Shown here piece after piece: positions 35,928 through 59,900 of a stretch of DNA of 64,000 bases. The notes below the pieces were generated by a model. The model worked only from the letters and a program-made list of their open reading frames with translations, was not told the DNA's origin and searched no databases. The stretch's first letter is position 1; every line of letters begins with the position of its first letter. The position numbers and the translations under genes are program-made. The stretch spans positions 1,984,001-2,048,000 of the forward strand of contig NC_092672.1 in the NCBI RefSeq assembly GCF_964355755.1, written 5' to 3'. Source of the stretch: Antedon mediterranea (Eukaryota > Animalia > Echinodermata).

Positions 35928-36293
35928 TGCTTGTTGTTCGCATCACAAATTGATTAACGTATATATCATGTCGTGTCAAACGCAATAAAGGTCTTAATGT
36001 GATAATAAAAGTACTGAAATACCCACTTTCCTTCAAATTTCCCGGAATGAGTTAATTGATGTAGGACCAGAATTCCCTTTTCTCGCGCGGTGTACATTCC
36101 TTCCCATCATACATTTCTTTGTTGACAAAATGTTCAACTTCTTCCGGGGTTAAGTTATTAAAAACACATCGAGTCATAACAATCAGAAGAAAGAACTGCA
36201 TGTGCTAGAGAGAGATGCTCTATTATACCTCTCTGTTTGATTTATTTTGGTTAAATCATTACCTAAATTGAAATTGTTGCCACTTCGAAGGAA
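35928..36293. promoter_or_regulatory. Putative bidirectional promoter (ICE2-like / TRMT44)
   Basis: Divergent start codons are only ~366 bp apart. The gap has ETS-like CCGGAA/CTTCCGG sites (~36042, ~36141) and an E2F-like TTTCTCGCGC (~36079). Confidence 0.55.
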
Positions 36294-39200
36294 ATGTTAA
36301 AGATGAATTTAAATTTGTTTGATTTCAAATGGAATTTAATCGAAACAAATAATAGTTGTTCTTGTAGTTTTAATGACTTTTGTAAAGCTGTGGATGTGTG
36401 GCTCATGAAACCTCATGTTTTGAATAGACGAATCTGTACATCTCAAATGTTATGGAGAAAAGAGATTCCAAACACGAAATTATTAACATTTCTAGAAGGC
36501 TGTATAAATTCTGATGCAGAATGTACAGCGGTACAAGACAATTCTAGCAATGACAGTAAATGTGTTGAATGTTGTCTCCGCAAACTTTTACCACGTAACA
36601 GAAGAAATGAAACTGTCAATGAAATTATTGTTATTGGTATGAACAAATTGCTAAATGTTGTCATGGTGATCAAAATGAAATTACTTTATTTAAAGTTATT
36701 TTCACACAAGAATAAGATACTACTTTTTACAATTATTCCAATAACTTTCAATTTTTTTTCAGATAATTCATCAGCAACTGTTATATTTATTCCTCTGGAA
36801 AACCCGAGTGCGTCAATACCATCTTTGGGTTGCGAGAATCTAATAAACAATACAGGTTACAAGATAGAGTTTAACGAAAGTGATCATAGGTATTAAAAAG
36901 ACCTTATACAATAACATACAATTTTAAAAATATATTTACCGGCTTATCTACACTATCAAACTTTGTGACAAAAAAATGCCCATAATGGACATGATGATGT
37001 CATATCAATACCATATTTGGGCACATCACACTTTTTTTTGTCAAACTAGTTTGATAGTGTAGACAGAGCTTTATGCTATACCCAATTTTTTTTAAACCCA
37101 TTTTTGGTTGGTTTTTTTCATAACAAAATCAAAGGTACTTAAATTATGATGATGATGACAGTGTGATCAGAATTTTTGAAAAAATAATAACTAAATTATG
37201 ATAAAATAAAACATTTTATTTTTAGCCTGAAATTGTTCGTTGGACAAGACTATAGCATCTCCGCCACAAGTAGTTTTGCACGACCTTCTATACCGTGGTT
37301 GAAAAATCAACTGTTGCCAAAATTGATAAAGTGGGCCACCGAAAACAATGAAGATTCTGGCAACCAATTTACATCCTTAGTTGCTATGGACAAATACAGC
37401 AAGTTGTACGCCGAACTGAAGCAAAAATATGGTGCCAAGTTTGTAAAGGTAAATTTATTTCTACGATGGATGAACTATTTGTTGTGCGAGTTAAATTAAT
37501 TAAAATCTTTTACAACTTGGAGAGTTAATAAACTTATAAAAGTGTGGCACTCTTTTCCTTTCAAGTATGTTTTCGTAAAAGTTCATAAATTTCTACTTCT
37601 ATTCTTAATATTTAATTTTCGTTTGGTCTTTAAGCTGTGGACAGAGGTGACTGATCCCCAAAAATTTGTTTATGAAGATGTTGCCATAGCAGCATACATC
37701 CTCACGTTGTGGCGGCAGGAAACGGACGAGCTAGGGTTAACGACCCCACAGTCTTTCATTGATCTTGGATGCGGTAATGGATTATTAGTTCATATTCTGA
37801 CTTGCGAAGGAGTAAGTGTACAGAGGTACATAGTAATATATCTGATAAATAAAAGACAACAGCATCCAACTAAAAATGTTAGTTATAGAAGCTGAGCCTA
37901 AACAGCGTATGCTGACAATCTTGATAAGTTATGATAAGTGTTTGTGTGTATACTAGTACACCGGGGTAACCCCTACTCATCTCGAAAGATGTACTAGGTG
38001 TTCATGAGCCAGATGTGTACACTGGACCTATGGTTTATAGTCTTTTTCCGAGAAGACTCGTTCTACCACAAGAACCATGGAGCGAGTAAGGCTCGAATCC
38101 TTACAAAGGTATTACGGTTCTTCTGTCTTAACCGCTTGGCCACTCACTCGCTAAAACAGTACATAACCTACACCCCTGGAATCTCAATGTGACCAACCAC
38201 CAAGCTAACATTTACTCATACTAGTAGTAAATTCATACATCTACAGTAATGACTTTGATTTGTAAAAGATTTCTTAATTTTTAAATTCTGTTTTTTTTAG
38301 CATCGTGGAAAAGGAGTTGATTTACGCAAAAGGAAAATATGGGATCTGTATGGAGAAGAAACTTGTTTAGAAGAATCTGCTATCACTCCATCAGACAGTA
38401 ATCTATTCCCAGAATATGATTGGCTAATTGGTAACCATTCAGATGAGCTGACTCCATGGATACCAGTTATTGCTTCCAGGTCAGGTCAAGAGAAATTCTA
38501 AAGCTCTTTATTCATTCCTCACTGTGAGTGTGAGAAAAATATCTCAAAATGTAACATTCAGCAATAAATCAAAATAACTGCTGTATTTTGTCATTTATTT
38601 TGTAGGTCATCTTTCAACACTAGATACTTTGTTCTACCGTGCTGTTTTCACGATTTTAATCGCAAGTTTGCACGCGTTAACTCAAACCAAGGGCAGTACA
38701 GAGCGTATCTAGATTTTGTGTTTGAGATCGGCCAAATATGCGGTTTTACAGTTCTTGAAGACAGGCTGCGAATCCCATCAACTAAAAGGGTTTGTTTAAA
38801 AATGTTGAAAAAATTAAAATAGCTAAACTATGAATGATTATGATTGTAGAAAAAGACAGTCAGATTGTCATTAGCAAAATAAAAACAAATCATCTCAAAC
38901 AACAAGATCAACAAATTAAATACCAATAAATCATCAAGAAACACTTTTTTAAAGGAATCAATTTTTGGAGGTGGAGTTTTCAGAAAAATGATCATCATAA
39001 CACAGCACAATAGTGTCTGCTTTTAGGATAGTTGTTTACTATTCTACTTCATACTATATAGATTCATTCTTTCTTAGATATGCCATGTTGGAAAAACCCG
39101 TACATACAAACAAGAAGAACAAAAGAAAATTGATTCAAAGATAAAAGAACTTATTGAAAAAAGGTCATCCACAAAGAAAACTGATTATTCAAATAATATG

Positions 39201-40376
39201 CAAGTTATTTGTGAATCAGAGTCGAGTGATTCATATAGGATAAAGAGAGAACTGGACGAGACGCAAAACGTTAGTTGCCAAAAGATACAACGTATCGATC
39301 AACATGATAAAACAACTTGTGGTGACGATTCAAAGAATTGGGTTCAGGGTTTCACAGCACGGGAAAAGGTAGAACGTGTTAGAAACTGTGCTACAGTCTG
39401 TCGAGATCTCAGACAAGAAATAGTCAATAAAGTTGCCTTAAAGTTACTTGAAGAGGGTGGAGTGCAGCTAAGAAGTGATACTCTAGTGAAAGATACCAGT
39501 CTTACTGACAATGATAGTCTTGATGACACTCCAGCAAGTGCCACTCCTGCGACTGACACTCACAGTTTTGAAGATGACACTCAAACTGTTGTAAAAGAAT
39601 GGAGGAGAGGAGGTACAAATAATCATAATTTGGAATAAATACACTACCATAATTTACTTGCAATTACTAGAGAATATTGCGAACTCTCTCCCAAAACCAG
39701 CATTTTTGTAACGGTCCAAATGTCCAAATTCTTTCCTACTATTCAAAATAAAATCAGACTCTGGGAAACCAGGAAATTGTCAAAAGATGATCAATGCAAT
39801 TGAGGCTTAGAATAAATTAACAAATTCTAATAAAATGTTTCTTCAAATACGATCATGGATATTGTTCATGAAGTTCAGACTCTCTTTAAAATGCCTTGAC
39901 ATTTGAAGGTATTTTTTGTTCTTCCTTAGGTGAACTCTATCTATCGGCAGTCGCGAGTTTTCTTGGCTCTGATACTTTGAAGAAACTAAAGCAAGAATGT
40001 GGGGGTTTGAAAACTCTCTTGAAAAATGCTAACCAAGTTTTTGAAGGTCAGTTTGAATTATTTTCCATAATGTAAATAATTAAAACAAGTATTATTTAAG
40101 AAAGTGGCCATGCTGTTACTTTCTACATTTAAACTGTTTTTGCATTACTTTTCAGTTTCTGGCAATACTGTTAAAATCCGTGATTGGGCAAACCGTGAAA
40201 ATGAACCTGGCAAAGCACATGCATCTCTCAAGAATATACAAGATAAGGAATTATTATTTAAAACGAAACATTGCTGGTTTCATAGCAACCATCCAGATGG
40301 ATGCCCGCGTAAAGATCACACCTGCCCATTTGCTCATGGTGATAATGATTTAAGGGAAAGGGCTACTTTTAAGTAA
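36294..40376 (+). CDS. TRMT44: tRNA (uracil-O(2)-)-methyltransferase Trm44, 9 exons
   Basis: Exons 36294-36636, 36763-36889, 37226-37448, 37635-37811, 38301-38479, 38606-38789, 39078-39612, 39930-40046 and 40156-40376. Motifs: TDPQKFVYEDVAIAAY, SAM-binding FIDLGCGNGLL, IGNHSDELTPWIP, FVLPCCFHDF, LRIPSTKR, and a C-terminal CCCH finger CWFHSNHPDGCPRKDHTCPFAHG. Confidence 0.95.
37945..38150 (-). mobile_element. Deu/Nin-domain SINE copy in TRMT44 intron 4
   Basis: Reverse complement match to the same family. Confidence 0.75.
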
Positions 40377-40624: not shown

Positions 40625-43600
40625 TTACATACTTTCGATGATAGATCTGCTTCGTACAACTGATTGGTTCTGTAAGAAAAAAACAAACAACTTATAACTT
40701 TTCTAAATTGTCTAAAGTTGTTAATGTTTCGCACGTTACCTAAAGTTTTCTAAAGTCCGCAAGTTTTCTAAAGTTTCCCAAGTTTTCGGAAGTTTTCCAA
40801 GTTTTCTAATGTCTCCCAAGTTTTCTAAAGTCTCATGTTTTCTGAAGTCTCCCAAGTTTTCTAAAGTCTCCCAATTCTTTTTTAAAGTTGGAAAAGTTTT
40901 ATAAAATAATCCTATTGTTTTCCATAAAGTTTCAGAAGTTTTCTAAAATAATGAATCTCGTACACAAATTCTGAAAATATCCCAAGATCCACGAGATTCG
41001 CACACAATCTGGAAGTCCCAAAAGGCCCGTTATAAATTAAACAACAAGCTTCTTTAGTGATATTCCAACATTTTTATGAATTAAATCGAGATACTGTATA
41101 TGATTTGTATGATAAATTTTTCTATTACATACCTGCATTTGGTTGGCTGATATAATGCTCTTGTTATTCATACGATCTACGGAACTATCGTTAGTTTTCC
41201 ACGGCATATAGACGGTATACGATTGCGGATACTTTGCTATGTTTGCCATGTACTTTTTGTTTAACTGTAAATCAACAGAGATGCATTAACCACTATGATT
41301 TACTATAATGACATTAAACAGTTTTCGAAATAGTACGCACTGACAATTATCATAAGTTTCTAAAAAATGAAAATTGTATAAGAACTATAAGTTGCATACT
41401 CGCGCGCGCACAATACATTATTTAAAGTTTGGTTTGTGTCTGAGATCACAATAGCAAGGGATTCGAAACTAGTATGATTTTCTTTTGTGTTGCACTTGCC
41501 GACAGTCTCGACGCCGTGGGCATCATTATGTCAACTTGCTGGGCTTAATCTCATTGGTTATCAGTGACTCCGTGACTTTGCGCCCGCGCAGTTTTATTAG
41601 TAGAAAATCAGTGATCCACAAAGAAAGTTTGCGAGAGAATCTCGCGGCGAATACGCCGATTAATGCACATGAATCCCTGTTAATAATACTTGTCTCAGTT
41701 AGTGTTGAGGACCCCAAGAGCACACGGGCGCTGGAAATATGATGGAATATATTAAAATAAAATAAATTGTAGAATGCAATAAATGACGCACACGCGTGCG
41801 ACTCAAGAGTGGTAATGACAAATTAAAAGCGATAATTCCAATGATCCATCGCTTGCGGCCGGCAGTCCATACGTTGCGACCCAATGAATAGTGACACAAA
41901 CCCTCTCAAAACGTACAGTGTTACTACACACACAACTTTTATAATAATGGTTGATAAAACAATAAAGTTTTTTTTTTTTTTTTTTTATTCAGTTGTCAAC
42001 CAACAGCGATGAAACCGCCACTAACAGGTTGAATAATAAATTGTAAACAATTAGAAACAATTAAGTTCATTGTGTATTGTTACGTCATCGTTGCTGCAAA
42101 CAATCAACCATCAAACATTCCATTTGTTTCAAACATTATGTACAATTTTGTCTGTGCGTGTTTTGTCAACATTAACAAAAAGATACCAATGCTTACCTCC
42201 CATTCGTGTTCCCATTTTAGATGGCTATAGTGTGCCTCTTTAGAGAAGATCCGCTTCAGTATAGCTTGATTTTCGTGAGTGACCCGCAGTAATTCTCGCT
42301 GACGCTTCGTTTTATTCAAACTTTAAAAAGAGATACTGGACATGAAATAATGACACGCAACTTCGACGAAATAATAAGAATGAATAAAAGCGTGTTATTG
42401 TTACGGATCGCATTCTACTCGTGAAAGCTATCTCACGACTGCACCTGGTTATTTACATACTTAGTGACGTCATTTCATAATAAATGATAAATCACGTATT
42501 GGATGAGGTTGTGGCAATTAAAATAAGGATATTATTATTATTAAAATATGATTCAAATTGTTAAAAAATAAGCTTTAAAGATGAATCATGAATAAATGTG
42601 TGAACACAAAAAAAAATATGAAAAAAAAAAACTATTTAACATAGCGAAATTGATCGTTAAAAAAAAGAATTGTGTTTGGCCATATCGTTCGGGCTACCAA
42701 TCGCATTCTATTCATGACCGCTTTCCCGTTACTACTCCACGTGGGAACTTTTGCGTTTTTCGAGTTACTCTCAGGAACTATAATATGTATTGGCATATTG
42801 ATGAAGTTTTTTTTATTAAGATTTTGTTTTGAAAATGCTACTTTAAAATGTAAAAAGAATGAAATAAAAGACAACAATAGTTCTTTTGAAAATTGAGGCA
42901 TTTGCCTATTTGAAGTAAAAAAAAATAAAAAAATAAAAGAATTGTGTTTGACCATATCGTTCGGGCTACCGATCGCATTCTACTCATGACCGCTTTCCCG
43001 TTAATACTCCACGTGGGAACTTTTGCTTGCTGTGTTGCCACCCTGGGCCAGTACGTTCCTCCTTAGTCAACCTGGTTGTCCATGCCTCCACTTGGCCAAC
43101 CATATCGACGCCGAGTTTAACGTGGACGTTCAATCGACATAGAACAACGACCGACACGATTCCCGAACTCATGCCATCCAACAATCCCGGCTTCCCGAGT
43201 CACTGGATTACAGACGCACGCCACAACGCCCAGCCGACAGAAACCAATTAATTAAGCACCTCGTTATTTACATACTGAATTTACATACTGAGTGACGTCA
43301 TACACGTCATCGAATTATCGAAAGGTCACTGGGTCGATTCGTTTGATTTTACGCTCAGCGCTGATGTATATTGAGATAGCTTTGTATAAAGAATTTTCTG
43401 CAAACATGGCTGCAATAAAAATAATGAAATAACATATGTATTTAGGCCTACTAGTAAAGTTAAAATAAAAAAAAACGGCACTAGATCGAGTTGTTACTTT
43501 TACGCTCAGGGACTATAATATGTATTGGTATATTGATAACGTTTTTCTATTAAGAATTTTTTTTGAAAATTCTACTTTAAAATGTAAAAATAATGAAATA

Positions 43601-46600
43601 AAAGACAATAATACTTAATAGTTCTTTTAAGATTGAGGGACGGGGCCTATTTCAAGTTCGTCCAAAAAAAAAAAAAAAAGAAAAAAAGAATTGTGTTTGG
43701 CCATATCGTTCGGGCTACCGATCGAATTCTACTCATGACCGCTTTCCCGTTACTACTCCGCGTGGGAACTTTTGCTTGCTGTGTTGCCACCCTGGGCCAG
43801 TACGTTCCTCCTTAGTCAACCTGGTTGTCCATGCCTCCACTTAGCCAACCATATCGACGCCAAGTTGTTTAACGTGGACGTTCAATCGACATAGAACAAC
43901 GACCGACACGATTCCCGAACTCATGCCATCCAACAATCCCGGCTTCCAGAGTCACTGGATTACAGACGCACGCCACAACGCCCAGCCGACAGAAACCAAT
44001 TAATTAAGCGCCTCGTTATTTACATACTGAATTTACATACTGAGTGACGTCATTATTCACGTCATCGAAATATTTAAACGTCACTAGATCGAATCATTTA
44101 CTTTGACGCTCAACGCCGACGTATATTAAGGAGGGTTTTCTATAAAAAAATTTCTAAAAATGGTTGCATTAAAAATAACGAAATAACATATGTATTTGCT
44201 ACTAAAGTTAAAATAAAAAACGTCACTATATCGAGTTGCTGCTTTTACGCTCAGGGACTATAATATGTATTGGCATATTGATGAAGTTTTTTTATTAAGA
44301 TTTTGTTTTGAAAATGCTACTTTAAAATGTAAAAAGAATGAAATAAAAGACAAGAATAGTTCTTTTGAAAATTGAGGCATTTGCCTATTTGAAGTAAAAA
44401 AAAAAGAAAAAATAAAAGAATTGTGTTTGGCCATATCGTTCGGGCTACCGATCGTATTCTACGAATGACCGCTTTCCCGTTACTACTCCACGTGGGAACT
44501 TTTGCTTGCTGTGTTGCCACCCTGGGCCAGTACGTTCCTCCTTAGTCAACCTGGTTGTCCATGCCTCCACTTGGCCAACCATATCGACGCCGAGTTTAAC
44601 GTGGACGTTCAATCGACATAGAACAACGACCGACACGATTCCCGAACTCATGCCATCCAACAATCCCGGCTTCCAGAGTCACTGGATTACAGACGCACGC
44701 CACAACGCCCAGCCGACAGAAACCAATTAATTAAGCACCTCGTTATTTACATACTGAGTAACGTCATACACGTCATCGAATTATCGAAATGTCACTGGGT
44801 CGATTCGTTTGATTTTACGCTCAGCGCCGATGTATATTGAGATAGCTTTGTATAAAGAATTTTCTGCAAACATGGCTGCAATAAAAATAATGAAATAACA
44901 TATGTATTTAGGCCTACTAGTAAAGTTAAAATTTAAAAAAATGTCACTAGATCGAGTTGTTACTTTTACGCTCAGGGACTATAATATGTATTGGTATATT
45001 GATAACGTTTTTCTATTAAGAATTTTTTTGGAAAATTCTACTTTAAAATGTAAAAATAATGAAATAAAAGACAATAATACTTAATAGTTCTTTTAAGATT
45101 GAGGGACGGGCCTATTTCAAGTTCGTCCAAAAAAAAAAAAAAGAAGAAAAAAAGAATTGTGTTTGGCCATATCGTTCGGGCTACCGATCGCATTCTACTC
45201 ATGACCGCTTTCCCGTTACTACTCCACGTGGGAACTTTTGCTTGCTGTGTTGCCACCCTGGGCCAGTACGTTCCTCCTTAGTCAACCTGGTTGTCCATGC
45301 CTCCACTTGGCCAACCATATCGACGCCGAGTTGTTTAACGTGGACGTTCAATCGACATAGAACAACGACCGACACGATTCCCGAACTCATGTCATCCAAC
45401 AATCCCGGCTTCCGGAGTCACTGGATTACAGACGCACGCCACAACGCCCAGCCGACAGAAACCAATTAATTAAGCACCTCGTTATTTACATAGTGAATTT
45501 ACATACTGAGTGACGTCATTATTCACGTCATCGAAATATTTAAACGTCACTAGATCGAATCATTTACTTTGACGCTCAACGCCGAGGTATATTAAGGAGG
45601 TTTTTCTATAAAGAATTTTCTACAAATGGATGCAATAAAAATAATGAAATAACATATGTATTTGCTACTAAAGTTAAAATAAAAAAAGTCACTATATCGA
45701 GTTGTTGCTTTTACGCTCAGGGACATATGTATTAGCATATTGATGAAGTTTTTTTTTATTAAGATTTTGTTTTGAAAATGCTACTTTAAAATGTAAAAAG
45801 AATGAAATAAAAGACAATATTAGTTCTTTTGAAAATTGAGGCATTTGCCTATTTGAAGTAAAAAAAAAATAATAAAAAAAAAATTGTGTTTGACCATATC
45901 GTTCGGGATACCGTTCGCATTCTACTCATGACCGCTTTCCCGTTACTACTCCACGTGGGAACTTTTGCTTGCTGTGTTGCCACCCTGGGCCAGTACGTTC
46001 CTCCTTAGTCAACCTGGTTGTCCATGCCTCCACTTGGCCAACCATATCGACGCCGAGTTTAACGTGGACGTTCAATCGATATACAACAACGACCGACACG
46101 ATTCCCGAACTCATGCCATCCGACAATCCCGGCTTCCAGAGTCACTGGATTACAGACGCACGCCACAACGCCCAGCCGACAGAAACCAATTAATTTAGCG
46201 CCTCGTTATTTACATACTGAATTCACATACTGAATGACGTCATTATTCACGTCATCGAAATATTTAAACGTCACTATAAGATCGAGTCATTTACTTTGAC
46301 GCTCAACGCCGAGGTATATTAAGGAGGTTTTTCTATAAAGAATTTTCTACAAATGGATGCAATAAAAATAATGAAATAACATATGTATTTGCTTCTAAAG
46401 TTAAAATAAAAAACGTCACTATATCGAGTTGTTGCTTTCACGCTCAGGGACTATAATATGTATTGGCATATTGATGAAGTTTTTTTTATTAAGATTTTGT
46501 TTTGAAAATGCTACTTTAAAATGTAAAAAGAATGAAATAAAAGACAAGAATAGTTCTTTTGAAAATTGAGGCATTTGCCTATTTGAAGTAAAAAAAAAAA

Positions 46601-49600
46601 AAATAAATAAAGAATTGTGTTTGACCATATCATTCGGGCTACTCCACGTGGGAAGTTTTGCTTGCTGTGTTGCCACCCTGGGCCAGTACGTTCCTCCTTA
46701 GTCAACCTGGTTGTCCATGCCTCCACTTGGCCAACCATATCGACGCCGAGTTTAACGTGGACGTTCAATCGATATACAACAACGACCGACACGATACCCA
46801 AACTCATGCCATCCAACAATCCCGGCTTCCAGAGTCACTGGATTACAGACGCACGCCACAACGCCCAGCCGACAGAAACCAATTAATTAAGCGCCTCGTT
46901 ATTTACATACTGAATTTACATACTGAGTGACGTCATTATTCACGTCATCGAAATATTTAAACGTCACTAGATCGAGTCATTTACTTTGACTCTCAACGCC
47001 GAAGTATATAAGGAGGTTTTTCTATAATGAATTTTCTAAAAATGGCTGCATTAAAAATAATGAAATAACATATGTATTTGCTTCTAAAGTTAAAATAAAA
47101 AACGTCACTATATCGAGTTGTTGCTTTTACGCTCAGGGACTATAATATGTATTGGCATATTGATGAAGTTTTTTTTTTATTAAGATTTTGTTTTGAAAAT
47201 GCTACTTTAAAATGTAAAAATAATGAAATAAAAGACAACAATAGTTCTTTTGAAAATTGAGGCATTTGCCTATTTGAAGTAAAAAAAAAATAAGAAAAAA
47301 AAAGAATTGTGTTTGGCCATATCGTTCGGGATACCGATCGCATTCTACTCATGACCGCTTTCCCGTTACTACTCCACGTGGGAACTTTTGCTTGCTGTGT
47401 TGCCTCCCTGGGCCAGTACGTTCCTCCTTAGTCAACCTGGTTGTCCATGCCTCCACTTGGCCAACCATATCGACGCCGAGTTTAACGTGGACGTTCAATC
47501 GACATAGAACAACGACCGACACGATTCCCGAACTCATGCCATCCAACAATCCCGGCTTCCAGAGTCACTGGATTACAGACGCACGCCACAACGCCCAGCC
47601 GACAGAAACCAATTAATTAAGCGCCTCGTTATTTACATACTGAATTTACATACTGAGTGACGTCATACACGTCATCGAATTATCGAAATGTCACTGGGTC
47701 GATTCGTTTGATTTTACGCTCAGCGCCGATGTATATTGAGATAGCTTTGTATAAAGAATTTTCTGCAAACATGGCTGCAATAAAAATAATGAAATAACAT
47801 ATGTATTTAGGCCTACTAGTAAAGTTAAAATAAAAAAAACGTCACTAGATCGACTTGTTACTTTTATGCTCAGGGACTATAATATGTAGTGGTATATTGA
47901 TAACGTTTTTCTATTAAGAATTTTTTTGGAAAATTCTACTTTAAAATGTAAAAATAATGAAATAAAAGACAATAATACTTAATAGTTCTTTTAAGATTGA
48001 GAGACGGGGCCTATTTCAAGTTCGTCCAAAAAAAAAAAGAAGAAAAAAAGAATTGTGTTTGGCCATATCGTTCGGGCTACCGATCGCATTCTACTCATGA
48101 CCGCTTTCCCGTTACTACTCCACGTGGGAACTTTTGCTTGCTGTGTTGCCACCCTGGGCAAGTACGTTCCTCCTTAGTCAACCTGGTTGTCCATGCCTCC
48201 ACTTAGCCAACCATATCGACGCCGAGTTGTTTAACGTGGACGTTCAATCGACATAGAACATCGACCGACACGATTCCCGAACTCATGTCATCCAACAATC
48301 CCGGCTTCCAGAGTCACTGGATTACAGACGCACGCCACAACGCCCAGCCGACAGAAACCAATTAATTAAGCGCCTCGTTATTTACATACTGAATTTACAT
48401 ACTGAGTGACGTCATTATTCACGTCATCGAAATATTTAAACGTCACTATAAGATCGAGTCATTTACTTTGACGCTCAACGCCGAGGTATATTAAGGAGGT
48501 TTTTCTATAAAGAATTTTCTACAAATGGATGCAATAAAAATAATGAAATAACATATGTATTTGCTACTAAAGTTAAAATAAAAAACGTCACTATATCGAG
48601 TTGTTGCTTTTACGCCCAGGGACTATAATATGTATTAGCATATTGATGAAGTTTTTTTTTATTAAGATTTTGTTTTGAAAATTCTACTTTAAAATGTAAA
48701 AAGAATGAAATAAAAGACAATATTAGTTCTTTTGAAAATTGAGGCATTTGCCTATTTGAAGTAAAAAAAAAATAATAAAAAAAAGAATTGTGTTTGGCCA
48801 TATCGTTCGGGATACCGTTCGCATTCTACTCATGACCGCTTTCCCGTTACTACTCCACGTGGGAACTTTTGCTTGCTGTGTTGCCACCCTGGGCCAGTAC
48901 GTTCCTCCTTAGTCAACCTGGTTGTCCATGCCTCCACTTGGCCAACCATATCGACGCCGAGTTTAACGTGGACGTTCAATCGATATACAACAACGACCGA
49001 CACGATACCCAAACTCATGCCATCCGACAATCCCGGCTTCCAGAGTCACTGGATTACAGACGCACGCCACAACGCCCAGCCGACAGAAACCAATTAATTT
49101 AGCGCCTCGTTATTTACATACTGAATTCACATACTGAATGACGTCATTATTCACGTCATCGAAATATTTAAACGTCACTATAAGATCGAGTCATTTACTT
49201 TGACGCTCAACGCCGAGGTATATTAAGGAGGTTTTTCTATAAAGAATTTTCTACAAATGGATGCAATAAAAATAATGAAATAACATATGTATTTGCTTCT
49301 AAAGTTAAAATAAAAAAACGTCACTATATCGAGTTGTTGCTTTCACGCTCAGGGACTATAATTTATGTATTGGCATATTGATGAAGTTTTTTTTATTAAG
49401 ATTTTGTTTTGAAAATTCTACTTTAAAATGTAAAAATAATGAAATAAAAGACAATAATACTTAATAGTTCTTTTAAGATTGAGGGACGGGCCTATTTCAA
49501 GTTCGTCCAAAAAAAAAAAGAAGAAAAAAAGAATTGTGTTTGGCCATATCGTTCGGGCTACCGATCGCATTCTACTCATGACCGCTTTCCCGTTACTACT

Positions 49601-52600
49601 CCGCGTGGGAACTTTTGCTTGCTGTGTTGCCACCCTGGGCCAGTACGTTCCTCCTTAGTCAACCTGGTTGTCCATGCCTCCACTTGGCCAACCATATCGA
49701 CGCCGAGTTGTTTAACGTGGACGTTCAATCGACATAGAACAACGACCGACACGATTCCCGAACTCATGCCATCCAACAATCCCGGCTTCCAGAGTCACTG
49801 GATTACAGACGCACGCCACAACGCCCAGCCGACAGAAACCAATTAATTAAGCGCCTCGTTATTTACATACTGAATTTACATACTGAGTGACGTCATTATT
49901 CACGTCATCGAAATATTTAAACGTCACTAGATCGAGTCATTTACTTTGACTCTCAACGCCGAGGTATATAAGGAGGTTTTTCTATAAAGAATTTTCTAAA
50001 AATGGTTGCATTAAAAATAATGAAATAACATATGTATTTGCTACTAAAGTTAAAATAAAAAACGTCACTATATCGAGTTGTTGCTTATTACGCTCAGGGA
50101 CTATAATATGTATTAGCATATTGATGAAGTTTTTTTTATTAAGATTTTGTTTTGAAAATGCTACTTTAAAATGTAAAAAGAATGAAATAAAAGACAACAA
50201 TAGTTCTTTTGAAAATTGAGGCATTTGCCTATTTGAAGTAAAAAAAAATAAGAAAAAAAAAGAATTGTGTTTGGCCATATCGTTCGGGATACCGATCGCA
50301 TTCTACTCATGACCGCTTTCCCGTTACTACTCCACGTGGGAACTTTTGCTTGCTGTGTTGCCACCCTGGGCCAGTACGTTCCTCCTTAGTCAACCTGGTT
50401 GTCCATGCCTCCACTTGGCCAACCATATCGACGCCGAGTTTAACGTGGACGTTCAATCGACATAGAACAACGACCGACACGATTCTCGAACTCATGCCAT
50501 CCAACAATCCCGGCTTCCAGAGTCACTGGATTACAGACGAACGCCACAACGCCCAGCCGACAGAAACCAATTAATTAAGCACCTCGTTATTTACATAGTG
50601 AATTTACATACTGAGTGATGTCATACACGTCATCGAATTATCGAAACGTCACTGGGTCGATTCGTTTGATTTTACGCTCAGCGCCGATGTATATTGAGAT
50701 AGCTTTGTATAAAGAATTTTCTGCAAACATGGCTGCAATAAAAATAATGAAATAACATATGTATTTAGGCCTACTACTAAAGTTAAAATAAAAAAAAAAC
50801 GTCACTAGATCGAGTTGTTACTTTTACGCTCAGGGACTATAATATGTATTGGTATATTGATAACGTTTTTCTATTAAGAATTTTTTTTGAAAATTCTACT
50901 TTAAAATGTAAAAATAATGAAATAAAAGACAATAATACTTAATAGTTCTTTTAAGATTGAGGGACGGGGCCTATTTCAAGTTCGTCCAAAAAAAAAGAAG
51001 AATTGTGTTTGGCCATATCGTTCGGGCTACCGATCGCATTCTACTTATGACCGCTTTCCCGTTACTACTCCGCGTAGGAACTTTTGCTTGCTGTGTTGCC
51101 ACCCTGGGCCAGTACGTTCCTCCTTAGTCAACCTGGTTGTCCATGCCTCCACTTGGCCAACCATATCGACGCCGAGTTGTTTAACGTGGACGTTCAATCG
51201 ACATAGAACAACGACCGACACGATTCCCGAACTCATGCCATCCAACAATCCCGGCTTCCAGAGTCACTGGATTACAGACGCACGCCACAACGCCCAGCCG
51301 ACAGAAACCAATTAATTAAGCGCCTCGTTATTTACATACTGAATTTACATACTGAGTGACGTCATTATTCACGTCATCGAAATATTTAAACGTCACTAGA
51401 TCGAGTCATTTACTTTGACTCTCAACGCCGAGGTATATAAGGAGGTTTTTCTATAAAGAATTTTCTAAAAATGGCTGCATTAAAAATAATGAAAAAACAT
51501 ATGTATTTGCTACTAATGTTAAAATAAAAAACGTCACTATATCCAGTTGTTGCTTTTACGCTCAGGGACTATAATATGTATTAGCATATTGATGAAGTTT
51601 TTTTTATTAAGATTTTGTTTTGAAAATGCTACTTTAAAATGTAAAAAGAATGAAATAAAAGACAACAATAGTTCTTTTGAAAATTGAGGCATTTGCCTAT
51701 TTGAAGTAAAAAAAAAATAAAAAATAAAAGAATTGTGTTTGACCATATCGTTCGGGCTACCGATCGCATTCTACTCATGACCGCTTTCCCGTTAATACTC
51801 CACGTGGGAACTTTTGCTTGCTGTGTTGCCACCCTGGGCCAGTACGTTCCTCCTTAGTCAACCTGGTTGTCCATGCCTCCACTTGGCCAACCATATCGAC
51901 GCCGAGTTTAACGTGGACGTTCAATCGACATAGAACAACGACCGACACGATTCCCGAACTCATGCCATCCAACAATCCCGGCTTCCAGAGTCACTGGATT
52001 ACAGACGCACGCCACAACGCCCAGCCGACAGAAACCAATTAATTAAGCGCCTCGTTATTTACATACTGAATTTACATACTGAGTGACGTCATACACGTCA
52101 TCGAATTAACGAAATGTCACTGGGTCGATTCGTTTGATTTTACGCTCAGCGCCGATGTATATTGAGATAGCTTTGTATAAAGAATTTTCTGCAAACATGG
52201 CTGCAATACAAATAATGAAATAACATATGAATTTAGGCCTACTAGTAAAGTTAAAATAAAAAAAACGTCACTACATCGACTTGTTACTTTTACGCTCAGG
52301 GACTATAATATGTATTGGTATATTGATAACGTTTTTCTATTAAGAATTTTTTTGGAAAATTCTACTTTAAAATGTAAAAATAATGAAATAAAAGACAATA
52401 ATACTTAATAGTTCTTTTAAGATTAAGGGACGGGGCCTATTTCAAGTTCGTCCAAAAAAAAAAGAAGAAAAAAAGAATTGTGTTTGGCCATATCGTTCGG
52501 GCTACCGATCGCATTCTACTCATGACCGCTTTCCCGTTACTACTCCACGTGGGAACTTTTGCTTGCTGTGTTGCCACCCTGGGCCAGTACGTTCCTCCTT

Positions 52601-55600
52601 AGTCAACCTGGTTGTCCATGCCTCCACTTGGCCAACCATATCGACGCCGAGTTGTTTAACGTGGACGTTCAATCGACATAGAACAACGACCGACACGATT
52701 CCCGAACTCATGCCATCCAACAATCCCGGCTTCCAGAGTCACTGGATTACAGACGCACGCCACAACGCCCAGCCGACAGAAACCAATTAATTAAGCGCCT
52801 CGTTATTTACATACTGAATTTACATACTGAGTGACGTCATTATTCACGTCATCGAAATATTTAAACGTCACTAGATCGAGTCATTTACTTTGACTCTCAA
52901 CGCCGAAGTATATAAGGAGGTTTTTCTATAATGAATTTTCTAAAAATGGCTGCATTAAAAATAATGAAATAACATATGTATTTGCTACTAAAGTTAAAAT
53001 AAAAAACGTCACTATATCGAGTTGTTGCTTTTACGCTCAGGGACTATAATATGTATTGGCATATTGATGAAGTTTTTTTTTTATTAAGATTTTGTTTTGA
53101 AAATGCTACTTTAAAATGTAAAAATAATGAAATAAAAGACAACAATAGTTCTTTTGAAAATTGAGGCATTTGCCTATTTGAAGTAAAAAAAAAAAATAAG
53201 AAAAAAAAAGAATTGTGTTTGGCCATATCGTTCGGGATACCGATCGCATTCTACTCATGACCGCTTTCCCGTTACTACTCCACGTGGGAACTTTTGCTTG
53301 CTGTGTTGCCACCCTCGGCCAGTACGTTCCTCCTTAGTCAACCTGGTTGTCCATGCCTCCACTTGGCCAACCATATCGACGCCGAGTTGTTTAACGTGGA
53401 CGTTCAATCGACATAGAACAACGACCGACACGATTCCCGAACTCATGCCATCCAACAATCCCGGCTTCCAGAGTCACTGGATTACAGACGCACGCCACAA
53501 CGCCCAGCCGACAGAAACCAATTAATTAAGCGCCTCGTTATTTACATACTGAATTTACATACTGAGTGACGTCATTATTCACGTCATCGAAATATTTAAA
53601 CGTCACTAGATCGAGTCATTTACTTTGACTCTCAACGCCGAAGTATATAAGGAGGTTTTTCTATAATGAATTTTCTAAAAATGGCTGCATTAAAAATAAT
53701 GAAATAACATATGTATTTGCTACTAAAGTTAAAATAAAAAACGTCACTATATCGAGTTGTTGCTTTTACGCTCAGGGACTATAATATGTATTGGCATATT
53801 GATGAAGTTTTTTTTTTATTAAGATTTTGTTTTGAAAATGCTACTTTAAAATGTAAAAATAATGAAATAAAAGACAACAATAGTTCTTTTGAAAATTGAG
53901 GCATTTGCCTATTTGAAGTAAAAAAAAAAAATAAGAAAAAAAAAGAATTGTGTTTGGCCATATCGTTCGGGATACCGATCGCATTCTACTCATGACCGCT
54001 TTCCCGTTACTACTCCACGTGGGAACTTTTGCTTGCTGTGTTGCCACCCTCGGCCAGTACGTTCCTCCTTAGTCAACCTGGTTGTCCATGCCTCCACTTG
54101 GCCAACCATATCGACGCCGAGTTTAACGTGGACGTTCAATCGACATAGAACAACGACCGACACGATTCCCGAACTCATGCCATCCAACAATCCCGGCTTC
54201 CAGAGTCACTGGATTACAGACGCACGCCACAACGCCCAGCCGACAGAAACCAATTAATTAAGCACCTCGTTATTTACATACTGAATTTACATACTGAGTG
54301 ATGTCATACACGTCATCGAATTATCGAAACGTCACTTGGTCGATTCGTTTGATTTTACGCTCAGCGCCGATGTATATTGAGATAGCTTTGTAATAAAGAA
54401 TTTTCTGCAAACATGGCTGCAATAAAAATAATGAAATAACATATGTATTTAGGCCTACTACTAAAGTTAAAATAAAAAAAAACGTCACTAGATCGAGTTG
54501 TTACTTTTACGCTCAGGGACTATAATATGTATTGGTATATTGATAACGTTTTTCTATTAAGAATTTTTTTTGAAAATTCTACTTTAAAATGTAAAAATAA
54601 TGAAATAAAAGACAATAATACTTAATAGTTCCTTTAAGATTGAGGGACGGGGCCTATTTCAAGTTCGTCCAAAAAAAAAGAAGAATTGTGTTTGGCCATA
54701 TCGTTCGGGCTACCGATCGCATTCTACTCATGACCGCTTTCCCGTTACTACTCCACGTGGGAACTTTTGCTTGCTGTGTTGCCACCCTGGGCCAGTACGT
54801 TCCTCCTCAGTCAACCTGGTTGTCCATGCCTCCACTTGGCCAACCATATTGACGCCGAGTTTAACGTGGACGTTCAATCGATATACAACAACGACCGACA
54901 CGATTCCCGAACTCATGTCATCCAACAATCCCGGCTTCCAGAGTCACTGGATTACAGACGCACGCCACAACGCCCAGCCGACAGAAACCAATTAATTAAG
55001 CACCTCGTTATTTACATACTGAATTTACATACTGAGTGACGTCATTATTCACGTCATCGAAATATTTAAACGTCACTAGATCGAGTCATTTACTTTGACT
55101 CTCAACGCCGAGGTATATAAGGAGGTTTTTCTATAAAGAATTTTCTAAAAATGGTTGCATTAAAAATAATGAAATAACATATGTATTTGCTACTAAAGTT
55201 AAAATAAAAAACGTCACTATATCGAGTTGTTGCTTATTACGCTCAGGGACTATAATATGTATTAGCATATTGATGAAGTTTTTTTTATTAAGATTTTGTT
55301 TTGAAAATGCTACTTTAAAATGTAAAAAGAATGAAATAAAAGACAACAATAGTTCTTTTGAAAATTGAGGCATTTGCCTATTTGAAGTAAAAAAAAAAGA
55401 AAAAATAAAAGAATTGTGTTTGACCATATCATTCGGGCTACCGATCGCATTCTACTCATGACCGCTTTCCCGTTACTACTCCGCGTGGGAACTTTTGCTT
55501 GCTGTGTTGCCACCCTGGGCCAGTACGTTCCTCCTTAGTCAACCTGGTTGTCCATGCCTCCACTTGGCCAACCATATCGACGCCGAGTTTAACGTGGACG

Positions 55601-56596
55601 TTCAATCGACATAGAACAACGACCGACACGATTCCCGAACTCATGCCATCCAACAATCCCGGCTTCCAGAGTCACTGGATTACAGACGCACGCCACAACG
55701 CCCAGCCGACAGAAACCAATTAATTAAGCACCTCGTTATTTACATACTATGACGTCATCATCATACGATAGGTTTTTCTATAACAAATTAAATAAGGAAC
55801 TACAATACAATATAGGCCTAGTATAATTTAGTAAAATTTAAGGCTACATAAACACTAAGGCCCGTATTAGTACATAGCCTGGTGAGTGAAAGAAAGCTCC
55901 TTCACCATCGTAATTCTTAAAGGAACTTTTTTATTTTTTATTTTAATCAATTTCTGATTTCATCCCCCAGTTACAACAATAATACCACACCCTCAATCAA
56001 GACACACCTTTTCTGTTCGTAGTCATTGTAATTGTCAACACGCCCTCTTGTTCGCATAATGTAACACATCTTTTCCAGGAGAATCCGATTATCTCGTTCA
56101 ATAATTGCTGTTCGTTCCTCTTCCATTTGCAGCTTTTTTAGTTTCAAATGTAGATGCATGTATATGTGTGGGGGTCGATTGTCAATTACTGCTTGCGCTA
56201 TCAAAACAATGTTATTGTTATTCTTTTTACAAATTGATTAAAGATCGATACAATTTAGAAAGTCAGTGGCTAAGAATATCTAGCCCTACCAGTAGTACTA
56301 GGTGGCCTACAACAGGTTACTTAAGCTCTGTTATGTCAAACAAGTTTGACGAAAAAACTGTGTTGTGCCCAAATATGGTAGTGATATGATGCCATAGTGT
56401 CCATATATGGGGCGCATCACATTTTTTTTTCAACATAAAGTTTGAGACAGAGTATGTAGACAGAGCTTTAAACATAAACAATACATTAATTACCATTCTG
56501 AACTTTTTGCCGATGCCTGTCGAACCGACTTTGGTCCCATCTTTGCTTGAGTAATTTGTTATTTGCCGGTGTGATGGGCTGATACGCTCGATGCAT
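40625..56596 (-). CDS. CFAP97D2: CFAP97 domain-containing (Hemingway/KIAA1430 family, CFAP97D1/D2-like) sperm axonemal protein, 5 exons
   Basis: Exons 56596-56494, 56197-56008, 42320-42197, 41264-41133 and 40669-40625 (last exon less certain) join in frame to MHRAYQPITPANNKLLKQRWDQ...AQAVIDNRPPHIYMHLHLKLKKLQMEEERTAIIERDNRILLEKM...SLNKTKRQRELLRVTHENQAILKRI. The D1 versus D2 assignment is uncertain. Confidence 0.88.
40695..40950. repeat. Degenerate short-period tandem repeat (AAGTTTTCTAAAGTCTCCC)
   Basis: Repeated aagttttctaaagt motif in CFAP97D intron 4. Confidence 0.75.
42667..42754 (-). pseudogene. 3' fragment of 7SL RNA (array edge)
   Basis: Only the last ~88 nt of the RNA, fused directly to mid-spacer sequence; no Alu 5' part or promoter. 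Confidence 0.85.
42917..42938 (-). terminator. Pol III oligo-T terminator of 7SL copy 1 (an equivalent follows every copy)
   Basis: A-runs on + (T4 to T10+ on -) directly follow the RNA 3' end ACAATTC. Confidence 0.85.
42939..43234 (-). ncRNA. RN7SL: SRP RNA (7SL) copy 1, 296 nt
   Basis: The reverse complement reads GCTGGGCGTTGTGGCGTGCGTCTGTAATCCAG...GATATGGTTGGCCAAGTGGAGGCATGGACAACCAGGTTGACTAAGGAGGAACGTACTGGCCCAGGGTGGCAACACAGCAAGCAAAA...ACAATTC then T-run. It is collinear with metazoan 7SL: Alu 5' domain with UGU, helix 6 GGAG loop, helix 8 GNRA loop, and CAGG/AGCA SRP54 loop. Confidence 0.95.
43688..43986 (-). ncRNA. RN7SL: SRP RNA (7SL) copy 2, 299 nt (+AAC variant)
   Basis: Same motifs as copy 1, with a 3-nt insertion. 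Confidence 0.93.
44418..44713 (-). ncRNA. RN7SL: SRP RNA (7SL) copy 3, 296 nt
   Basis: Same motifs as copy 1; upstream CRE altered to TAACGTCA. Confidence 0.93.
45154..45452 (-). ncRNA. RN7SL: SRP RNA (7SL) copy 4, 299 nt (+AAC)
   Basis: Same motifs as copy 1. Confidence 0.93.
45881..46176 (-). ncRNA. RN7SL: SRP RNA (7SL) copy 5, 296 nt
   Basis: Same motifs as copy 1; several helix-5 substitutions shared with copy 9. Confidence 0.9.
46612..46869 (-). pseudogene. SRP RNA (7SL) copy 6 with 38-bp internal deletion
   Basis: Reads cgggctac|tccacgtg. 38 bp were lost between CTAC microhomologies, removing much of the 3' strand of helix 5. Confidence 0.85.
47304..47599 (-). ncRNA. RN7SL: SRP RNA (7SL) copy 7, 296 nt (helix 8 stem mismatch)
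   Basis: GUG changed to GAG next to the GCAA loop (tgcctccctg at 47401). Confidence 0.88.
48050..48348 (-). ncRNA. RN7SL: SRP RNA (7SL) copy 8, 299 nt (+AAC)
   Basis: Same motifs as copy 1, with a few substitutions. Confidence 0.9.
48785..49080 (-). ncRNA. RN7SL: SRP RNA (7SL) copy 9, 296 nt
   Basis: Same motifs as copy 1; carries variants of both copy 5 and copy 6. Confidence 0.88.
49531..49829 (-). ncRNA. RN7SL: SRP RNA (7SL) copy 10, 299 nt (+AAC)
   Basis: Same motifs as copy 1. Confidence 0.93.
50262..50557 (-). ncRNA. RN7SL: SRP RNA (7SL) copy 11, 296 nt
   Basis: Same motifs as copy 1; CRE altered to TGATGTCA. Confidence 0.9.
51000..51298 (-). ncRNA. RN7SL: SRP RNA (7SL) copy 12, 299 nt (+AAC)
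   Basis: Same motifs as copy 1. Confidence 0.92.
51730..52025 (-). ncRNA. RN7SL: SRP RNA (7SL) copy 13, 296 nt
   Basis: Same motifs as copy 1. Confidence 0.93.
52475..52773 (-). ncRNA. RN7SL: SRP RNA (7SL) copy 14, 299 nt (+AAC)
   Basis: Same motifs as copy 1. Confidence 0.93.
53210..53508 (-). ncRNA. RN7SL: SRP RNA (7SL) copy 15, 299 nt (+AAC; helix 8 CCAGG to CGAGG)
   Basis: Same motifs as copy 1, with a substitution in the SRP54-binding symmetric loop. Confidence 0.88.
53945..54240 (-). ncRNA. RN7SL: SRP RNA (7SL) copy 16, 296 nt (helix 8 CCAGG to CGAGG)
   Basis: Same motifs as copy 1; shares the helix 8 change with copy 15; CRE altered to TGATGTCA. Confidence 0.88.
54683..54978 (-). 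ncRNA. RN7SL: SRP RNA (7SL) copy 17, 296 nt
   Basis: Same motifs as copy 1, with several private substitutions. Confidence 0.88.
55411..55706 (-). ncRNA. RN7SL: SRP RNA (7SL) copy 18, 296 nt (first in transcription order, unique upstream flank)
   Basis: Same motifs as copy 1; CRE TGACGTCA at -44 to -51. Confidence 0.94.
55707..55757 (-). promoter_or_regulatory. 7SL upstream promoter (AT-rich/TATA-like segment plus ATF/CRE)
   Basis: TATGTAAATAA near -30 to -40 and TGACGTCA at 55750-55757. The same elements recur in the internal units, e.g. CRE at 43293-43300. Confidence 0.7.
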
Positions 56597-56900
56597 TGTT
56601 ATACTATTATTGAACTGATTGTTTAATAAAAATAAGAAAATAAATAGGCCTAGGTAGACAATTGATAAACAAAATAAGTAGCAAAAGCAAGTATTCATGA
56701 ATATATTGAATACACGTTGTTATTTATGTATTCGAATTTACGCGCCTTTCCAAATAAGAAGCAACGCGATTTGCACAGAATAAGAAGGCGCGACGCGCTA
56801 GAAGTATGGTACTAACGCGCGTATTTTCATTTCGAAAAATATATCTTAATCCTCCTAGAAAATAAGGATACACAGTACTATTTAAATTATAGTTTTAAAT
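56597..56900. promoter_or_regulatory. Putative bidirectional promoter (CFAP97D / CatSper4)
   Basis: Divergent ATGs are 304 bp apart, with a CGCG-rich patch at 56740-56822. Confidence 0.55.
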
Positions 56901-59900
56901 ATGGAAGAAATATCTAAAGAGTGTGATGGCAATAATATTCCGACAGATGAGTCGAAGAATATTCCAGTTGCAGAAACACAGAAAGCGGGGTCTGGGTTCA
57001 AACGTGCAACACTCGGTTTGACTGCTTTTAAAAAGGTAGGTTTAGCCTAACTAGGCCTAGGCCTAGGCCTAGGCCTAGACCTACCTAGGCCTAGGTCTAG
57101 GCTGTCTAGCTAGCCTTGTTGTAGTAGGCCTACTGGGCTAGGTTAAGCTCCTTTCTTTGTTATTGTGTAGGCCTCTAGGCCAAGCTGCTTATGTATAACG
57201 AACGGATCCATTATGTGTAGCCTATGTTCATGCATTGAGGCTCTAAAATATTAAAAACATTTATTTTTCAGATTGGAGAAAAGGTAAAAGTTGGAAATCG
57301 ATTGATGGGTAAGAAAGATAAATTGCCTGAAAATGATAGGTAAGACAAACGAGATAGGCCTACTAGCTCCTGAGCTTAAAAGCTAAGGCTAACCATCGGA
57401 CGGTAATTTCAAGGTGTAGGTTCAGTCAAATGAAAATAGGAACAAATTTGTAGTTCAGTAAATTCTAGAATTATGTATCAGCGGACTGTACAGCTCATTG
57501 CAAGAGAACATATATAATATTTCAATTTCATAAATAAGTGATATGATTACGTCACTAATGCGAATAATCCATTCTTATTTCTACCTAGTGATGAAATACA
57601 ACGCGTGTTTACGTTTGATGAATCGGCGGTAAGTGCAATCTAATGTAGTTTGTTGAAAGATATTTCGAACATTGTCCAAAATATTAAAATATTATATTGC
57701 GCATTGCACGCTATGTTTAATGAAATTGTCAGATTTAGGACGGCACTTGGACTTTGTGAAGAAAGGAAATGCATTTTGGTTGGTTGATATCACCCCTTTA
57801 AAGGCCAATTTACACAGACGATCGAGCGGTAACGGTAATAAAAAATATGTTATTTTTTATGAACATTTACACACAACTTAACACGGAGCGAACGGAAGGC
57901 TTCAACTCAGAAAAGACACAGATTCTACGTGGGACAAGCTACGTGATTTTTCGCTTAACGTTACCGCTCGTCTGTCTGTGTAAATTGACCTTTATACTCA
58001 ACACAAGGTGTTTCAATCCCATTTAATACTTAGCAGAAACTTGTATTTTCTTAATAAATCAACATTACACCTATATTGAAGCTACCAGTTGTGCGCACTA
58101 TAGAGGAAAAAGATGATGATACGGTGATGAAGAAGATTATGATAATGATGTCGGTAAAAATTACGCAATATGTTATCATCAAACTGAACGATTTACTTGA
58201 TTTTTATTATTAGGTGAAAGAGGGCGCATCGATATCCGAACTCTTTGCAAGTGACGAAGTTGAAGAAGATTTCAACGCCATCGTAGACCAGGATGATGAC
58301 CGTGTGGAAGCGTTCGTGTCGCAAGAGCTGGTGGGCCAGATGGTCGACAGCTACTTCTTCCGATCTTTTATATTCGCTGTTATTGTTGCCAATGCTGTTC
58401 TGATTGGCTTGCAGACCAATGAGGAACTCGTAAGTAGGCCTAAACATCATTTTACATTTTGAAACGTAACAAACCATTCATACTACCAATTTAGTGGAAA
58501 GTTAGCATTTATCTTCGAAATACAAAATAGCATTTTAGTGATCAGACAAAAGAAAGAGTTTGGCTAAGATAATATGAAACAGATTTAAATTCAAACTCAA
58601 TTCACAAATTAGTCTCAGTCTTAATGCTTGATTCACACCAAATCAAACCAAAGCGCACACAACTGACGGTTCAGATCCTAGAATTATACCATGTGTAAAT
58701 TAAATGACATTATATTACGGTAACATTTATATATCTTTTTACAACAGTCTAGAGACTATGCCAATCTGTTTTCTGTGTTCGATAACATTGTACTCACCAT
58801 ATTTGTGTGTGAATTAGCTTTAAAATGGTACAACGGATTCTTTATTTACTGGCGAGTCGGTTGGAATGTTCTAGACTTCTTCATTATACTGACACTTCTT
58901 CTTGGTCCAAGTAAGTGTAGACAAAGTCCCACCCTTCTCTGTCGTCATTATTGTCACACGCGCGCGTATATCGTTCCGCTTCAGTGTTTCATTCATGTTG
59001 ATCTTATTTCACTTTTTAGTAAATCTCTCAATTTTGTTTCTAATTGTTGTTGGATATTTCCACAGCATTGACGTTTCTTGGTAGCAGCAGAATCTTAAGA
59101 ATCTTACGAGTGCTAAGAGCTTTTCGAAGTCTTAGAAGGTAGGTGATACTCAGTGTTAGTGGAAAATAAATAATTACACCAAAATTGATTTAGACTTGTA
59201 GGCCTAAATGTCTACCAAACTTAAATTTGTTTCGCTTCTCCAATTCTGAGTAAGTTTTATTTTGTTGGTATTCTTTACAGTATTAGTGCATTAACGGGTC
59301 TTTCTGTAGTTGTTCAGACGATCTTTCAATCCGTTCCAGGTAGGTAAACAACTAAACGACGCGCAACGCAAGTAACGACGCGCAACGCACATAATATCAC
59401 TATCACAAAAATAGCAAACTGTCGATTGGTCGCCCTTACGTCATAAGACTTTAACTATTATTTTTCCAGATATGACCAACATTGCTCTTCTTTTGATTAT
59501 CATAATGTTAGTGTTGGGTGTTGCCGGTGTCTCACTATTCGGCAAAGATGTACCGAAACACTTCGGTGACATGACTGCAGGTAAAATTAAAACATTAACA
59601 CTGTATTAAACCGACAAATATGTCATTAATAATATACAACTAAAAAAGTAACTATAAATAAAACTATGTCTACACTATCAAACTAGTTTGACAAAAAAGT
59701 TTCATGTGCCCAAATGTGGTAGTGATATTCTTAAATATGATAGTGATATGACATCATCATGTCTATAGTTGGGCACATCGCATTTTTTTTGGCACATAAA
59801 GTTTGATAGTGTAGACAGAGATTAAGTTAAGAAATGACAACAACTTTAGGCCATGAGTGAGTTACAGAAGATATATTGATGTGCTTTAACGTGTACATTA

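Follow-up and report, generated by a model that had tools for sequence, protein, structure and literature searches.

Tandem arrays that undergo concerted evolution are a familiar arrangement for 5S and for the early genes of sea urchins. For the RNA of the signal recognition particle (SRP RNA or 7SL RNA), which guides secreted proteins to the endoplasmic reticulum, several multi-copy systems have been described. Zebrafish has 67 complete SRP RNA genes, located mainly in three clusters on chromosome 11 and expressed in the egg and early embryo, and a single gene on chromosome 3 takes over in adults (Breit et al., bioRxiv 10.1101/869651). Schistosoma mansoni has 12 7SL copies (PMC2770079), humans have three 7SL loci (RN7SL1-3; PMC7073466), and the human RNU2 genes form 10-20 copies of a 6-kb unit (PMC7073466). 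Mammalian 7SL genes carry a cyclic AMP response element (CRE) at -51/-44 (PMC7279448). Here we analysed a stretch of 64,000 nucleotides from the crinoid Antedon mediterranea (Echinodermata; NCBI RefSeq assembly GCF_964355755.1, contig NC_092672.1, positions 1,984,001 to 2,048,000 of the forward strand; henceforth the window), in which a tandem array of 18 SRP RNA genes lies inside one intron of a CFAP97D1-like gene.

A search of the window with Rfam returned 18 matches to Metazoa_SRP (RF00017), all on the minus strand between positions 42936 and 55706 (Table 1), with no further 7SL match anywhere else in the 64 kb. All 18 lie above the gathering threshold of 70 bits (17 copies scored 200.1-222.3 bits and copy 6 scored 113.2). 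The copies are members of the metazoan SRP RNA family, and a preliminary description of this DNA, made from its letters alone, had been right to propose an array of 18 SRP RNA genes on that strand. We numbered the copies 1-18 from low to high coordinate, copy 18 being the one transcribed first. They lie head to tail at start-to-start distances of 693-752 bp (mean unit 734 bp) and, together with a 3' fragment of the gene, make up 95.7% of the 13,687-nt host intron, in line with the share of about 95% given earlier. A 3-nt insertion near gene position 117 is found in seven of the 18 copies, and copy 6, which has lost 38 nt from the 3' strand of helix 5, is likely a pseudogene. The 32-nt gene start quoted in the preliminary description holds for 17 of the copies and fails in one. 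Between positions 41200 and 42930, a region that includes both gene fragments listed in Table 1, Rfam detected no SRP match at E-values up to 1 (only three chance-level matches). ARAGORN found no tRNA genes.

The copies retain the structural hallmarks of SRP RNA. Specifically, the UGUNR motif of the Alu domain, the GGAG loop of helix 6 and the GCAA loop of helix 8 are kept in all 18, and the full helix-8 motif, including the CAGG/AGCA internal loop, is present in 15; the form of this motif quoted earlier thus describes most of the array and not copies 7, 15 and 16, in which it is changed. We aligned seven of the 18 copies with the 7SL genes of two loci from another animal (L001 and L002; see below) and found that 23 of 101 predicted pairs across the whole RNA were changed on both sides yet still paired. 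Most of these double-sided changes fall in helix 5, which is not intact in copy 6. The loop of Alu helix 4 is identical in all 18 copies and departs both from the Rfam consensus and from L001 and L002: in seven out of seven aligned copies, as opposed to neither of the two outgroup genes, one of its loop-loop pairs is G-G and one is G-U. This deviation may be a general crinoid trait or the mark of a variant type of SRP RNA.

Each copy also carries promoter-like elements and a terminator of its own. In all 18, four or more consecutive T occur no more than 11 nt from the 3' end, A-tails and internal TTTT are absent, and upstream there is an AT-rich box at -21 as well as, at -39, the motif ATGTAAAT, which we take to be octamer-like (or forkhead-like when the next base is included). 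Fifteen copies have a perfect CRE, TGACGTCA, in their upstream region (copy 18 at -51, 14 others at -66), and copies 3, 11 and 16 have a version with one mismatch, which in copy 3 is at -53. The position differs because, in 16 of the 17 copies preceded by a spacer, a 13-bp duplication has moved the CRE-type site out to -66 from about -53. Only five of the 44 positions upstream of +1 are variable among the copies. The combination of CRE and ATGTAAAT was absent from the 50.5 kb of the window that lie outside the intron's array region, and the flank of copy 18 resembles the other units only up to a point just upstream of the CRE. The units are DNA-level duplications of a whole gene and not retroposed copies. 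A reading of the copies as short interspersed nuclear elements (SINEs) or retro-pseudogenes derived from 7SL was considered and rejected because of their T-runs without A-tails, the upstream elements that they keep and their tandem order.

The intron that houses the array was delimited by comparison with the RefSeq protein named CFAP97D1-like of Antedon mediterranea (P0001), which is a gene-model product and as such no proof of splicing. Exons 1-4 encode 183 consecutive residues identical to P0001 and spanning intron 2; the intron therefore has the GT-AG limits given in Table 1, exactly those of the preliminary description. Furthermore, the two exons that flank the array match successive parts of the Pfam profile Hmw_CFAP97 (positions 10-62 and 77-99), and exon 2 is 100% identical to P0001 and 92% identical to its counterpart in Anneissia japonica. 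Introns 1 and 3 of the host measure 296 and 932 nt, and all 18 copies lie on the host's sense strand.

Table 1 Features of the 7SL array, its host gene and the comparison loci. Positions are those of the window, except for the last two rows, which refer to loci of another animal.
Feature	Position	Strand	Evidence
Whole 7SL array (18 genes with their spacers and the 3' fragment)	42660-55760	-	
Copy 18 promoter-like region (CRE -51, ATGTAAAT -39, AT-rich box -21)	55707-55760	-	
Copy 18 (unique upstream flank, TGACGTCA at -51)	55408-55706	-	218.5 bits
Copy 17	54680-54978	-	201.3 bits
Copy 16 (C190G in helix-8 loop)	53942-54240	-	222.3 bits
Copy 15 (+3 nt, C190G)	53207-53508	-	211.9 bits
Copy 14 (+3 nt)	52472-52773	-	210.5 bits
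Copy 13	51727-52025	-	214.8 bits
Copy 12 (+3 nt)	50997-51298	-	209.1 bits
Copy 11	50259-50557	-	216.0 bits
Copy 10 (+3 nt)	49528-49829	-	212.3 bits
Copy 9 (upstream spacer 49081-49527 is an A/B recombinant by mosaic painting)	48782-49080	-	203.7 bits
Copy 8 (+3 nt)	48047-48348	-	200.1 bits
Copy 7 (helix-8 stem mismatch U195A)	47301-47599	-	218.4 bits
Copy 6 (38-nt internal deletion)	46597-46869	-	113.2 bits
Copy 5	45878-46176	-	203.7 bits
Copy 4 (+3 nt)	45151-45452	-	205.7 bits
Copy 3 (without 13-bp promoter duplication)	44415-44713	-	217.6 bits
Copy 2 (+3 nt)	43685-43986	-	206.6 bits
Copy 1	42936-43234	-	214.9 bits
7SL 3' fragment (terminal ~95 nt plus T-run; 98% identity with copy 14)	42660-42754	-	blastn
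Older, internally deleted remnant (CRE and ATGTAAAT fused to part of the 7SL 3' half at 76% identity)	42402-42473	-	blastn E 7e-7, 1e-3
CFAP97D1-like exon 1 (counted from the ATG that relatives conserve; in RefSeq it reaches 56698)	56494-56596	-	
CFAP97D1-like exon 2	56008-56197	-	Pfam PF13879 E 2e-15; 100% to P0001
Host intron 2 (13,687 nt, GT-AG)	42321-56007	-	
CFAP97D1-like exon 3	42197-42320	-	Pfam PF13879 E 2e-5
CFAP97D1-like exon 4 (low end approximate)	41133-41264	-	tblastn of P0001
CFAP97D1-like last coding exon (approximate)	40628-40675	-	tblastn of P0001
CatSper4-like gene (oriented head to head with the host, start codons 305 bp apart)	56901-62736	+	
L001 7SL locus	1-1272		
L002 7SL locus	1852-2704		

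To reconstruct the history of the array, we compared its genes with its spacers. The 17 spacers fall into two classes with full tree support, namely class A (six spacers) and class B (ten), plus one recombinant. The genes are 2.0% apart, compared with a mean of 8.3% and a maximum of 16.9% for the spacers; between the two classes, spacers differ by 16.4% and genes by 2.2%. Substitutions diagnostic of the class number 0 in the 296 nt of the gene, 1 in the 70 nt of the proximal promoter and 43 in the 335 nt of spacer, and the best-supported split obtained without preset classes involves 33 spacer sites and 2 gene sites. We also found that all seven insertion-bearing genes have a B spacer upstream, and that six of them are then followed by an A or A-starting spacer, an order that suggests an ancestral unit of two genes, about 1.47 kb long. 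The four-gamete test failed in 16 of the 66 pairs of shared sites in the gene, meaning that exchange inside the genes was common; clear mosaics among the spacers were limited to one of the 17. Distance between B-class units was uncorrelated with their separation in the array (rho 0.06, P 0.69), and every spacer contains a decayed internal duplication at an offset of about 140-170 bp. Altogether, the two classes point to an old dimer that would have been amplified by unequal crossover, with long-term constraint on the RNA and its promoter. The low divergence of the genes relative to spacers that reach 16.9%, the four-gamete failures and the kept promoter-like elements and T-runs lend support to the earlier proposal of an amplified 7SL locus evolving in concert. 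The possible reason put forward with that proposal, a high secretory or germline demand, is a conjecture.

The 31 gene variants gave weak signals of being slightly milder than random ones: 10 break a pair where 14.0 are expected (P 0.066), and the mean change in folding free energy is 0.44 kcal/mol as against 1.16 for random variants (P 0.026). CpG decay was not seen, with transitions at CpG accounting for 4 of the 31 gene variants and observed-to-expected CpG ratios of 1.14 in the gene, 1.64 in the spacer and 0.78 outside.

We consider it highly probable that the locus is a working array of RNA polymerase III genes under concerted evolution, a core that is shared with the first of the alternatives discussed below. 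With less assurance, we favour a fuller account in which each copy would be transcribed on its own by RNA polymerase III, the array would be the main source of SRP RNA and the intron would be its incidental host. The events may be pictured as follows. A 7SL gene, complete with the upstream promoter (CRE, ATGTAAAT and AT-rich box) and T-run found in today's copies, would have arrived in the intron. Duplication at the DNA level would then have produced a two-gene unit, the spacers of which diverged by 16% into the two observed classes. The mosaics that we detected could stem from unequal crossover and conversion, concentrated in the highly identical gene and proximal promoter; units would thus have multiplied and their RNAs been kept 98% alike. 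Selection would act on the total output of the array, leaving single copies to drift and decay (as in copy 6 and the fragments). Finally, the host transcript would read through the array and the intron would be spliced out, a burden that is presumably small if host expression is largely confined to sperm-forming or ciliated cells.

As to that cost, among 17 units scanned on the host strand, nine contain a polypyrimidine run followed by AG and 11 contain AATAAA, the two lying about 90 nt apart where both occur; a GTRAG-type donor was found in none of the 17. Tolerance of the array would be easiest to explain by a host that is active in few cell types. Mouse Cfap97d1 is testis-only and Cfap97d2 broadly expressed (PMC7444823); the Antedon host is called CFAP97D1-like after its RefSeq name and could be the ortholog of either. 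Its presumed sperm-flagellar role derives from that label together with the CatSper4-like neighbour. This neighbour and the host, whose starts face each other across 56596-56901, are two flagellar or sperm genes that likely share a promoter.

Several observations weigh against the favoured account. Internal A and B boxes gave no match to the tRNA-type consensus at up to two (A) or one (B) mismatches. The A boxes of 7SL genes are described as atypical (PMC7279448). The loop-loop pairing between Alu helices 3 and 4 comprises four of five pairs in the seven aligned array copies, one of them G-U, compared with five of five in L001 and L002 (in a comparison that used only the loop-loop rows and helix 3, in the register of the human structure). 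Sense AATAAA motifs are not depleted (14 in the intron, with 9.7 expected in the array), so nothing suggests that the array has been adapted to protect its host. A Fisher test of the diagnostic-site contrast gives P 5e-13, an overstatement, since the spacers themselves served to define the classes; crossover within the gene could also, by itself, erase class differences there. Within classes, genes are about as variable as spacers (1.8-2.1% vs. 2.1-2.5%), meaning that recent selection on single copies is weak. Lastly, the pair-break and free-energy tests disagree by subset (P 0.054 and 0.25, respectively, for shared variants; P 0.35 and 0.025 for singletons).

How do other explanations fare? 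The one that survives best, although we regard it as rather unlikely, is that the array is of an egg or germline type and that a separate, solitary and more canonical 7SL gene supplies adult tissues. Zebrafish, with its clustered egg-type copies and single adult gene, provides the precedent (bioRxiv 10.1101/869651). Such a role would fit the deviant Alu helix-4 loop shared by the aligned copies, their Rfam scores (200-222 bits, compared with 236-242 for L001 and L002) and the shift of the CRE-type site to -66 in 16 of 17 spacer-fed copies. Sea urchins, too, have histone and snRNA genes that are tandem when early and solitary when late, a pattern that our literature search did not confirm. However, crinoids in general could show the Alu and promoter deviations, the 64-kb window contains no second type of 7SL, and multi-copy 7SL occurs elsewhere without a shown stage split (12 copies in S. 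mansoni, two near-identical and probably tandem ones in L001/L002). The most specific form of this idea, in which the variant Alu domain and rewired promoter would mark an SRP RNA locus of egg type and a solitary 7SL gene would serve the soma, is in our view more doubtful still. If it were true, the dual SRP RNA system of zebrafish would reach echinoderms, being either old or repeatedly evolved in deuterostomes; an array in the intron of a sperm gene would sit in a host silent in oocytes, so that host and array would alternate by sex.

We think it unlikely that one or a few copies are active (e.g., copy 18, with its mammal-like CRE position) and that the rest spread by drift as a satellite-like amplification. 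The equal within-class diversity of gene and spacer, the deletion in copy 6, the two remaining fragments, the loss of the perfect CRE in three of 18 copies and the helix-8 changes in three of 18 are what such drift would leave behind; by contrast, gene and proximal promoter together hold one diagnostic site in 366 nt, compared with 43 in 335 nt of spacer, only 5 of 44 positions upstream of +1 vary, and gene variants are slightly milder than random with CpG not depleted. It is very improbable that the copy number was inflated by assembly, given that all copies differ. An exact repeat of 807 bp at an offset of 735 bp, across copies 14-16, could reflect one false unit or a recent duplication, but no other exact repeat is longer than 398 bp and, besides the 807-bp repeat, just one pair of stretches longer than 700 bp is at least 97% alike. 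All 18 genes and 16 of the 17 spacers differ in sequence, and two classes 16% apart with a recombinant spacer between them are unlike the product of a false duplication. We can virtually dismiss the notion that the RNAs are cut from the spliced host intron in the manner of intronic snoRNAs and so driven by the host, which would suit the sense orientation of every copy, but sits poorly with upstream elements and a T-run kept per copy and with an RNA needed in every cell from a host that is likely restricted.

The preliminary description had left open whether such an arrangement had been reported. Amplified 7SL clusters are already known (the zebrafish clusters and the 12 copies in S. mansoni), and it is the echinoderm and intronic setting that went unreported in our searches: we found neither an echinoderm nor an intronic 7SL array described, in a literature search that did not query CFAP97 and 7SL together and covered subscription journals poorly. 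What appears to be new here is thus the echinoderm lineage, the intronic site, the two-class structure, the apparently weakened Alu loop-loop pairing and the shifted CRE. With this array, amplified 7SL genes are seen in an invertebrate deuterostome, and since its copies can be told apart by sequence, one RNA-seq set per tissue could test for egg- and body-type SRP RNAs beyond the vertebrates. The array further offers a compact natural model for how RNA polymerase II reads through 18 same-strand RNA polymerase III units, many of which contain polypyrimidine-AG and AATAAA motifs. Should it simply be a housekeeping locus, it would be a neat, if modest, illustration of concerted evolution.

Elsewhere in the window, exons with Pfam matches to an S-adenosylmethionine (AdoMet) methyltransferase and a CCCH finger occupy 36267-40373 on the plus strand, and stop about 250 bp from the last coding exon of the host, tail to tail with it; we presume that this gene is TRMT44. 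Exon-like open reading frames were seen upstream of it at 35140-35385, 16922-17197 and 24620-24922, all on the minus strand. A Pfam match was found in none of 10 other open reading frames of the window that were tested. Repeats comprise a degenerate minisatellite of 17-19 bp in the host's last intron (40699-40947), a 92-bp tandem repeat at 27646-29257 (17.6 copies, 97% matches, no Rfam match) and a dispersed 21-bp family with many sites in 4327-37100 and at 56370-56420, including host intron 1.

The two outgroup loci came from a metagenome scan with a 20-nt S-domain motif, which matched these two alone; a scan with a 22-nt Alu-domain motif gave no matches. They belong to another animal and do not represent the orthologous locus, and their 7SL genes are 68-70% identical to copy 18. 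L001 and L002 are 95% identical to each other over 628 nt (gene and 3' flank), and the L002 upstream flank has a similar stretch at the far end of L001 (75% over 119 nt), which suggests that L001 may be one unit of a 1.3-kb tandem array in that animal. No TGACG motif occurs in the 280 nt before the L002 gene. We also observed that this gene lies 1.3 kb behind a same-strand open reading frame of 266 codons that has no Pfam match and ends at a donor-like GT, so that the 7SL gene of L002 may likewise be intronic.

Among the systems described so far, the zebrafish clusters resemble the Antedon array in consisting of many near-identical, full-length, clustered 7SL genes. They differ from it in number and context, with 67 copies spread over three clusters, demonstrated expression in the egg and a known solitary somatic gene, as opposed to 18 copies in one array of an echinoderm. 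The Antedon array also lies inside an intron, which may or may not hold for the zebrafish clusters. Mammalian 7SL genes share with the array the RNA family, TGACGTCA at -51 (copy 18), an AT-rich element at about -21 and the T-run; in contrast to the three human loci, however, Antedon has 18 genes in tandem and, in most of them, a CRE at -66 behind a duplicated ATGTAAAT. Alu and B1 SINEs resemble the array in that many copies of 7SL sequence can lie inside an intron; unlike them, the array has a full S domain, a promoter copied with each unit, a T-run instead of an A-tail, and a tandem instead of a dispersed order. Finally, arrays of the RNU2 type share its head-to-tail layout, conserved gene, faster-evolving spacer and decayed edge copies, and the 7SL array differs from them in encoding a different RNA, in its very short unit, in its two interleaved spacer classes and in its position within the intron of a protein-coding gene.

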